From: Shigella phage sb1
Direction: 5' to 3' (one strand)
Sequence record: PQ666539
Length of the DNA: 64,000 bases
Position 1 is the stretch's first letter; the number at the start of each line of letters is the position of its first letter. The notes beneath the pieces were generated by a model, which worked only from the letters and a program-made list of their open reading frames with translations, was not told the DNA's origin and did not search any database. Below are positions 56,456 to 59,127 of the stretch, one piece after another. The position numbers and the translations under genes are program-made.

Positions 56456-57322
56456 ATGTTCATTCAAGAACAAAAGAAATTGATTGATACCGTCGAAATT
56501 GGTAACGCTTCTACTGGTGATATCTTATTCGACGGTGGTAATAAAATTAATAGTGATTTTAACGCAATTTATAATGCGTTTGGCGATCAGCGCAAAATGG
56601 CAGTAGCAAATGGCACTGGAGCAGATGGCCAAATTATCCATGCTACTGGATATTATCAAAAGCACTCTATAGCAGAGTACGCAACTCCAGTAAAAGTTGG
56701 CACTAGACATGATATTGATACCTCTACTGTAGGTGTTAAAGTTATCATTGAACAAGGCGAACTTTGCGACTGTGTTGAATTTATTAACTCAAATGGATCA
56801 ATATCAGTTACTAATCCTTTAACAATTCAGGCTATTGATTCAATCAAAGGTGTTTCGGGTAATTTGGTAGTAACTAGCCCATATAGTAAAGTTACTTTAC
56901 GATGTATTTCATCTGATAATTCTACATCGGTTTGGAATTATTCTATTGAAAGTATGTTTGGGCAAAAGGAATCACCAGCTGAAGGTACATGGAATATTTC
57001 TACATCTGGATCAGTTGACATTCCACTATTTCACCGTACTGAATATAACATGGCTAAATTGTTAGTTACGTGCCAATCGATAGATGGAAGAAAAATTAAA
57101 ACAGCATAAATAAATATTCTTGTGGATAATGTTAATTCAGAGGTCATTTCTTCTGAATATGCTGTCATGCGGGTTGGAAATGAAACCGAAGAAGACGAAA
57201 TCGATAATATTGAATTTATTATTAAAACAAATTATGTAACAGCGACTATAAGTTCTTCAACTGTTGGCATGAGAGCAGCAGTTAAAGTTATCGCTACGCA
57301 GAAAATCGGGGTGGCTCAATAA
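56456..57322 (+). pseudogene. 9: Baseplate long-tail-fibre attachment protein gp9, 288 codons with in-frame TAA at 57107..57109
   Basis: Track ORFs 56456..57109 and 57122..57322 are in the same frame with TAA plus INIL between; total equals T4 gp9. Confidence 0.8.
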
Positions 57323-59127
57323 TGAAACAAAATATTAATATCGGTAATGTTGTTGATGATGGCACCGGTGACTACCTGCGTAAAGGTGGTATAAAAATAA
57401 ATGAAAACTTTGATGAGCTTTATTATGAACTCGGTGATGGTGATGTTCCATATTCAGCCGGTGCCTGGAAAACTTATAATGCTTCATCCGGTCAAACATT
57501 AAAAGCTAAGTGGGGAAAATCATACGCTATTAATACCTCTTCTGGAAGAGTAACTTTACAACTTCCTAAAGGAACTGTTAATGATTATAATAAAGTAATT
57601 AGAGCTAGGGATGTATTTGCAACATGGAACATTAATCCAGTTACTTTAGTAGCTGCTTCTGGGGATACAATTAAAGGGTCGTCATCGTCAGTTGAAATTA
57701 ATATTCAATTTAGTGATTTAGAGCTCGTTTATTGCGCTCCAGGACGTTGGGAGTATGTCAAAAACAAACAAATTGACAAAATTACCAGTTCAGATATTAG
57801 TAATGTAGCTCGCAAAGAATTTTTAGTAGAAGTTCAAGGACAAACTGACTTTTTAGATGTTTTCCATGGAACTAGTTATAATGTCAATAACATCAGAGTA
57901 AAACACCGCGGTAACGAATTATATTACGGCGATGTATTTAGTGAAAACAGTGACTTTGGCTCTCCGGGGGAAAATGAAGGAGAATTAATTCCTCTTGATG
58001 GATTTAATATTAGGTTAAGACAGCCTTGTAATATTGGCGATACTGTTCAAATTGAAACGTTTATGGATGGTGTATCACAATGGAGAAGTTCATATACAAG
58101 ACGCCAAATAAAAGTACTAGATTCAAAACTAACGTCAAAGACTTCTTTAGAAGGAAGCATTTATGTTACTGATTTATCGGCGATGAAATAAATTCCATTC
58201 TCCGCGTTTGGATTAATTCCTGGCGAACCCATTAATCCTAATTCTCTCGAGGTTCGTTTTAATGGAATTTTACAGCAACAGGCTGGAACAGCTGGGTATC
58301 CTCTGTTTTTGTGCGAAGGCGCTAATTCAGATACGCAAGAAGGATGTATATCTCTTGGCGGCGAATGGAAAGAATCAAACACCGATTATTCTATAGAATA
58401 TGAAGACGGAAAACCTATCAGTCTTTTATTTGATAGAAAATTTGAATCCGGTGACATTATCGTTATAACATGGTTCAATAACGATTTAGGAACTCTTTTA
58501 GAAAAAGATGACATTATTGAATTGACTGATGACCGCTATGTTAGCAAAGGATCATCTACCGAGGTTACTGGTGATGTGGCCTTAACAGATTTTGATAAAA
58601 TTGGTTGGCCAAATGTTGAAAAAGTTGATTCTTATACTAGAACGTATAATTCAATATCATCTATTTTCGATAGCATTTATCCTGTAGGTTCAATTTATGA
58701 AAATGCTATAAACCCAAATAATCCGGTGACTTATATGGGGTTTGGTTCGTGGAAATTATTTGGTAAAGGACAAGTGTTAGTAGGATGGAATGATGATGTT
58801 ACGGATCCAAACTTTGCTTTAAACAATAATGATTTAGATTCTAGCGGAAATCCTTCACATACTGCCGGTGGAACGGTTGGAACAACATCATTAACGCTTG
58901 AAAATGCAAATCTTCCTGCGACTAAAACTGACGAAAGAGTTTTAATTGAAGATGAAAACGGATCAGTTATTATTGGAGGTTGTCAATATGACCCAGATGA
59001 AACTGGTCATATATATACAAAATATCGTGAAGACTATGCAACAACAAACTCTTCACATACTCCTCCTACTAATATTAGTAATATTCAACCGTCTATTACT
59101 GTATACCGTTGGATAAGGATTGCATAA
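57322..59127 (+). pseudogene. 10: Baseplate short-tail-fibre attachment protein gp10, ~601 codons with in-frame TAA at 58189..58191
   Basis: Track ORFs 57322..58191 and 58309..59127 are in the same frame with 39 sense codons between; total near T4 gp10 (602). Confidence 0.8.

Follow-up and report, generated by a model that had tools for sequence, protein, structure and literature searches.

Results

Genes 9 and 10 and their interrupted reading frames

The DNA analysed here, referred to below as the window, is a stretch of 64,000 nucleotides from Shigella phage sb1 (PQ666539). It belongs to a T4-like (Tequatrovirus) genome, of which it covers the part between regA and gene 13 inclusive. Over its whole length the window is about 96-97% identical to the nearest records, and no record is identical to it. 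Projection of annotated relatives onto the window revealed that the order of the baseplate cluster (53, 5, 6, 7, 8, 9, 10, 11, 12, wac, 13) is kept. Two neighbouring members of this cluster, the homologues of T4 genes 9 and 10, are each broken by a single premature TAA codon (Table 1).

These two stops had been reported in the first-pass annotation, and both are present in the sequence. In gene 9, the first open reading frame (56456..57109, 217 amino acids) and the second (57122..57322, 66 amino acids) lie in the same frame and are separated by four sense codons, giving a total of 217+1+4+66 = 288 codons. The first open reading frame of gene 10 (57322..58191, 289 amino acids) is likewise in frame with the second (58309..59127, 272 amino acids), with 39 sense codons between them and a total of 289+1+39+272 = 601 codons. 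We re-derived the segment lengths, the common frames and the spacings and obtained the values originally claimed, as well as the agreement in total length with T4, which is exact for gp9 (288 in both) and differs by one residue for gp10 (601 versus 602). The identity of both genes, for which alignment with the T4 proteins had been proposed, is confirmed by end-to-end alignment to the solved structures: when read through the stop, residues 1-288 of gp9 align to residues 1-288 of T4 gp9 with E=6e-177 (PDB 1S2E, 1QEX and others), and residues 1-601 of gp10 align to residues 1-602 of T4 gp10 (PDB 5HX2, 5IV5, 2FL8). The window proteins thus resemble their T4 counterparts in being full length and free of rearrangement, in their lengths of 288 and 601/602 amino acids, and in the gene order 8, 9, 10, 11, 12; they differ from them by divergence at many positions, by one nonsense codon in each gene and by private missense changes (six in gp9, two in gp10).

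Table 1. Positions of the genes, premature stop codons and private changes discussed in the text
Feature	Position	Strand	Details
rpbA, premature stop	3667-3669	-	
Gene 46, premature stop	4676-4678	-	
nrdH, premature stop	11924-11926	-	
nrdG, premature stop	12917-12919	-	
nrdD, premature stop	13399-13401	-	
Premature stops in genes with no name given	21188-21190, 21753-21755, 22294-22296, 25911-25913	-	
vs, premature stop	31250-31252	-	TGA
denV, premature stop	35072-35074	-	TGA (TGC>TGA), codon 107; common to phage sb2
Premature stop in a gene with no name given	38039-38041	-	TGA
Premature stops in genes with no name given	38353-38355, 39753-39755	-	
Premature stop in a gene with no name given	41066-41068	-	TAG
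57A, premature stop	44247-44249	-	
Gene 3, premature stop	45504-45506	-	TAG
Gene 5, premature stop	49212-49214	+	
Gene 6, premature stop	50418-50420	+	
Gene 9 homologue, baseplate wedge / long-tail-fibre connector	56456..57322	+	288 codons; broken at codon 218
Gene 9, premature TAA	57107..57109	+	G>T at 57107, GAA (Glu218) to TAA
Gene 9, six private G:C>T:A missense changes	56472, 56493, 56765, 57204, 57213, 57219	+	P6Q, G13V, G104C, A250D, A253E, S255I, in the same order
Gene 10 homologue, baseplate wedge subunit and tail pin	57322..59127	+	601 codons; broken at codon 290
Gene 10, premature TAA	58189..58191	+	C>A at 58190, TCA (Ser290) to TAA
Gene 10, two private G:C>T:A missense changes	58891, 59009	+	V524L, P563H, in the same order
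Gene 12 (short tail fibre, 59783-61332), private 1-base deletion	60275..60276	+	CCC>CC, frameshift

Conservation of the two sites in related phages

The region 56456-59127 matched 604 T4-like (Tequatrovirus) phage records in a megablast search; the best of them are 98% identical and collinear with the window, and in them gp9 and gp10 are located between genes 8 and 11. Alignment with nine loci, representing seven distinct sequences, was gap-free at 94-98% identity, and annotated relatives possess an intact gp9 of 288 amino acids (Killian, UGKSEcP2 and fPS-90) and an intact gp10 of 601 amino acids. To these we added a panel of 49 loci from IMG/VR with 35-97% protein identity. In all 49 of them gp9 is a single unbroken open reading frame of 279-292 amino acids, and in nearly all it is followed by a gp10 frame of 597-609 amino acids that can be aligned with gp10 of the window; an uninterrupted frame for the full-length protein, intact in 49/49 relatives, is thus what the gp9 and gp10 genes of the window lack.

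In the gap-free alignment, codon 218 of gene 9 is GAA and codon 290 of gene 10 is TCA in all close relatives, and T4 itself has E218 and S290 at these sites. Glu218 of gp9 is invariant in the larger panel (49/49 loci), and position 290 of gp10 is Ser in the close relatives and varies in the more distant ones. Look-ups of the gp9 fragment and of gp8 as exact proteins gave no match, and exact 32-mers containing either TAA are absent from IMG/VR. A search of IMG/VR and metagenomes with a degenerate pattern retrieved five viral or metagenome contigs with exactly the gp9 flanks, all having GAA and none TAA. Finally, the bases surrounding each stop (57 for gp9, 61 for gp10) had no 100% match among 50,697 phage records by short megablast, the best hits being one mismatch off.

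The stops are accompanied by other private changes in the same two genes. Compared with the seven distinct close relatives, all ten private G:C>T:A changes in gp9 and gp10 are non-synonymous, versus one of the eight private changes of other classes (7/8 synonymous). Some of the missense changes fall on conserved residues: in the 49-locus panel, G13 and G104 of gp9 are invariant or nearly so, and P563 of gp10 is nearly invariant.

Premature stop codons across the window

We projected the pSs-1 annotation through a four-genome alignment codon by codon and re-read each codon in the window, which allowed 97 genes to be mapped. This census yielded 21 premature stops in 21 genes, namely rpbA, 46, nrdH, nrdG, nrdD, vs, denV, 57A, 3, 5, 6, 9, 10 and eight genes without assigned function (Table 1). 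The same 97 genes contain no internal stops in either pSs-1 or UGKSEcP2. TAA accounts for 16 of the stops, TGA for three and TAG for two, and 20 of the 21 (18/19 outside gp9 and gp10) originate from a G>T or C>A change: GAA>TAA in 11 cases, TCA>TAA in three, TAC>TAA and GGA>TGA in two each, and TGC>TGA and TCG>TAG in one each. The single exception is a T>G change, TAT>TAG. The residues replaced are Glu, Ser, Tyr, Gly and Cys.

The predominance of TAA follows from the AT-rich codon usage, since these genes have 2,234 sites where a stop would result from G>T or C>A, and at about 70% of them that stop is TAA (GAA 47%, TCA 15%, TAC 8%). The first-pass annotation had described gp9 and gp10 as following the same pattern as the other interrupted genes. 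This is correct insofar as interruptions recur in 21 genes, but no property of TAA or of recoding unites them, as TGA and TAG also occur; the shared pattern of TAA is a consequence of the mutational class and not of the codon.

One stop stands apart. The premature TGA of denV also occurs in phage sb2, in which endonuclease V is likewise annotated as shortened, whereas pSs-1 and UGKSEcP2 have TGC at this codon. Being shared, this stop, in contrast to the others, may reflect a real truncation of the gene in nature.

Spectrum and distribution of private substitutions

A change was regarded as private if the window differs at a position where three relatives (sb2, pSs-1 and UGKSEcP2) agree. The window has 116 private G>T and 129 private C>A changes, 245 together, versus 63, 21 and 81 when each of the relatives was taken in turn as the focal sequence. 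Its 462 transitions and 108 transversions at A:T sites are within or near the range of the relatives, and no class other than G:C>T:A is elevated. The excess over the relatives therefore amounts to approximately 165-225 changes of one class, affecting about 1% of G:C pairs (1.09% per site).

The G:C>T:A changes are uniformly distributed along the window and are strand-symmetric. The block of genes on the minus strand and that on the plus strand have equal rates of C>A and G>T, which rules out damage linked to strand or transcription. With respect to sequence context, no preference was detected from trinucleotides to heptanucleotides (k-mer clustering z between -0.1 and 1.2), and the C[C>A]G rate of 1.23%, compared with 1.09% overall, indicates that CCG is not enriched.

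An intact phage genome would not be expected to have such stops. With 1.09% of G:C sites changed, however, the expected number of nonsense changes is 0.39 for gp9 and 0.97 for gp10, and the two stops in these genes are accordingly a chance yield of the background.

Selection on the two classes of change

We compared the coding effects of private changes with random expectation for each substitution class. Within genes, the G:C>T:A changes comprise 20 synonymous, 163 missense and 17 nonsense substitutions, against 17, 158 and 25 expected, and are distributed over the first, second and third codon positions as 89, 69 and 42, against 89, 66 and 46 expected. The private transitions in the same genes comprise 267 synonymous, 93 missense and no nonsense changes, against 120, 232 and 8 expected, and 251 of these 360 transitions occupy third codon positions. 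The difference between the two classes is highly significant (Fisher p = 2e-54): the private transitions show ordinary purifying selection, whereas the G:C>T:A class shows none. The nonsense count is somewhat below expectation (17 versus 25.2, with a shortfall probability of ~0.06 by a rough Poisson estimate), which could reflect weak selection or chance. No start or stop codon has been lost to G:C>T:A changes in the 97 mapped genes, for which only about one such loss is expected at 1.09% (an estimate).

The window thus carries a layer of G:C>T:A changes that is confined to one class, random in its placement and unselected. A layer without selection cannot belong to a genome that replicates as a phage.

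Indels, the tRNA cluster and phage sb2

Besides substitutions, the window contains several private single-base indels. The deletion in gene 12 splits gp12 into open reading frames 59783..60292 and 60340..61329, which lie in different frames; like the stops, this frameshift indicates that the genes described by the record are not functional. Comparison with the three relatives revealed other single-base indels at 23823, 24090, 34389 and 41503, of which the 1-base deletion at 23823 splits a 322-codon gene without assigned function into 23043..23786 and 23819..24178.

The tRNA cluster at 41561-42388 on the minus strand comprises ten genes (Arg, Asn, Tyr, Met, Thr, Ser, Pro, Gly, Leu and Gln), all of which were detected. 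Twelve private changes were listed in this cluster, and seven belong to the G>T and C>A classes: those at 41866, 41873, 41894, 41903 and 42239 are inside tRNA-Met, tRNA-Thr and tRNA-Leu, and those at 41722 and 41725 are at the edge of tRNA-Tyr. In the surrounding region (41200-42500), UGKSEcP2 possesses an extra tRNA-His and extra small open reading frames, and a gap of about 500 bases interrupts its alignment near 42486-42773. Such a difference in content is the usual mosaicism of T4-like phages and has no connection with the stops.

The record of phage sb2 (PQ666540.1) seems to be affected in the same way, but to a lesser degree. Three internal stops are present among its counterparts of the 97 genes, and the annotation divides the DNA polymerase between two CDSs. 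Of the private G:C>T:A changes in sb2, 22 are missense, 22 synonymous and one nonsense.

Discussion

Recoding of stop codons

Interrupted genes that can be restored by read-through call to mind programmed recoding, in which TAA, or stop codons generally, would be read as sense by a suppressor tRNA, a reassigned code or readthrough, and full-length gp9 and gp10 would be produced. Many genes of the window have in-frame stops, mostly TAA, and reading through them gives back full-length homologues; moreover, stop-codon recoding is known from other phage lineages (bioRxiv 10.1101/2021.08.26.457843). In the recoded phages described by Borges et al. (TAG>Gln, TGA>Trp), many genes, including structural ones, similarly need read-through (bioRxiv 10.1101/2021.08.26.457843). 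The hallmarks of such phages are suppressor tRNAs and depletion of the recoded codon, although a suppressor tRNA or other decoding factor has been found in only 35-40% of those known (bioRxiv 10.1101/2021.08.26.457843).

The window differs from the recoded phages. The natural terminators of the 97 mapped genes are TAA in 60 cases, TGA in 30 and TAG in seven, so that the codon concerned, far from being rare, is also the main terminator, and TAA ends gp9 (57320) and gp10 (59125) themselves. The premature stops include all three stop codons and replace five kinds of residue rather than one amino acid. Nothing about them is conserved in relatives: the gp9 and gp10 stops occur in no relative, none of the 21 is found in pSs-1 or UGKSEcP2, and one is common to sb2. 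None of the ten tRNAs identified in the window by ARAGORN has a stop-reading anticodon (tct, gtt, gta, cat, tgt, tga, tgg, tcc, taa, ttg). An ochre-suppressor tRNA or TAA reassignment was rejected, the tRNAs being ordinary and TAA the main terminator. Random missense changes at invariant residues also arise from the same mutational class. A recoded origin is most improbable, and recoding is excluded as the explanation of the stops.

Origin of the G:C>T:A layer

The preferred explanation is that ordinary natural divergence has been overlaid by a second layer of approximately 165-225 extra G:C>T:A transversions and a few 1-base indels. This layer struck about 1% of G:C sites, chosen randomly and equally on both strands, without regard to context, codon position or function, and GAA>TAA in gp9 and TCA>TAA in gp10 are two of the roughly 20 nonsense hits that it was bound to produce. 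We consider it highly probable that the layer is unselected G:C>T:A error or damage in the record, most likely an error of the deposited or assembled sequence, and that the stops are not biology. Accordingly, the pair of TAA codons in gp9 and gp10 is most likely not biological and represents the nonsense share of that layer. We infer that the layer was introduced while the sample was handled or sequenced or the reads assembled, and that the DNA of the phage itself is free of it; if it is an error, genes 9 and 10 would be intact in the real phage.

Oxidised guanine gives rise to changes of the G:C>T:A class, which are also known as artefacts of library preparation. A candidate source is a G>T-biased base-calling or DNA-damage artefact that might have been fixed in a consensus built from very few independent molecules. 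The best-known laboratory artefact of this class, caused by 8-oxoG that forms on shearing, has a CCG>CAG preference and a low allele fraction, G>T being confined to read 1 and C>A to read 2 (Costello et al. 2013, PMC3616734). The window is similar to it in the substitution class, in the involvement of both strands, in the absence of visible selection and in an excess limited to C>A/G>T (245 versus 21-81 in relatives); it differs in that neither CCG nor any other context is preferred and the changes sit in the consensus. Since CCG is not enriched, an artefact of the Costello type is not demonstrated, though the substitution class matches. The absence of k-mer dependence, from trinucleotides to heptanucleotides, argues against a base caller that errs systematically where T-even DNA has modified cytosines, and such k-mer-dependent error is unsupported.

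The mutations might alternatively be physically present in the DNA that was sequenced, as would be the case for a dead hypermutated genome (an oxidised or mutagenised molecule, a single amplified molecule, or one damaged in vivo) that was sequenced faithfully. The single clean class, as expected from oxidised guanine, is compatible with this, as are the presence of the changes at consensus level, not obviously at low frequency, and the absence of the classical shearing context; the same statistics would also suit real but unselected mutations. However, a molecule with 21 nonsense codons, two frameshifts and approximately 160 random missense changes in 64 kb could not have propagated, and the tested changes occur in no other public sequence. 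As propagation is impossible, a single molecule never amplified in vivo would be needed, and ordinary phage sequencing does not sample such molecules. We regard this origin as unlikely; a stochastic, per-site, selection-free process fits a few-molecule consensus better than a faithfully sequenced dead molecule. Still further down the scale, we give very little credence to hypermutation of guanine or (hydroxymethyl)cytosine in vivo, by oxidation or by an enzyme, with the genome caught as a dead molecule. Lethal mutagenesis of T-even DNA by a host defence would be one possibility under that heading, by analogy with the restriction of retroviruses by APOBEC. It is likewise very improbable that the stops are laboratory ochre mutations of genes 9 and 10 maintained on a suppressor host, or that each gene is naturally split into two functional open reading frames. 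The classical tools of T4 genetics include conditional-lethal nonsense mutants of baseplate genes, and downstream of each stop there is an in-frame open reading frame with a possible GTG or TTG start. Against this, there are 21 interrupted genes and a random missense load rather than a defined mutation or two, the phage is a wild Tequatrovirus, sharing only about 96-98% identity with any record, and not the laboratory strain T4, and single open reading frames are kept in 49/49 relatives. Ochre suppression is, moreover, too inefficient to rescue so many essential genes.

Consequences for the phage and for use of the record

If the stops were real, the gp9 product would be short by its last 71 residues and gp10 by its C-terminal 312, the latter loss taking in the separately solved C-terminal domain (PDB 2FKK, aligned to window residues 396-601). 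Genes 9 and 10 are essential in T4, as are genes 3, 5, 6 and 46. The genome as written, with nonsense codons in genes 3, 5, 6, 9, 10 and 46 and a frameshift in gene 12, could produce no infectious particles. Whether the layer is an error or belongs to a dead molecule, the stops play no part in the making of gp9 and gp10 by the phage.

About 1% of the G:C positions of the record are unreliable and 21 genes look broken; unless corrected, it is unfit for gene calling, for building protein families and for inference of the genetic code. The analysis also provides a recipe for distinguishing noise from recoding, in which the mutational class of the stops is compared with that of genome-wide private substitutions and the footprint of selection is then tested for each substitution class. 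Nothing in the present evidence favours real hypermutation in the DNA over an artefact; should the changes prove real, a T-even genome hypermutated so cleanly in the G:C>T:A class would be of interest.
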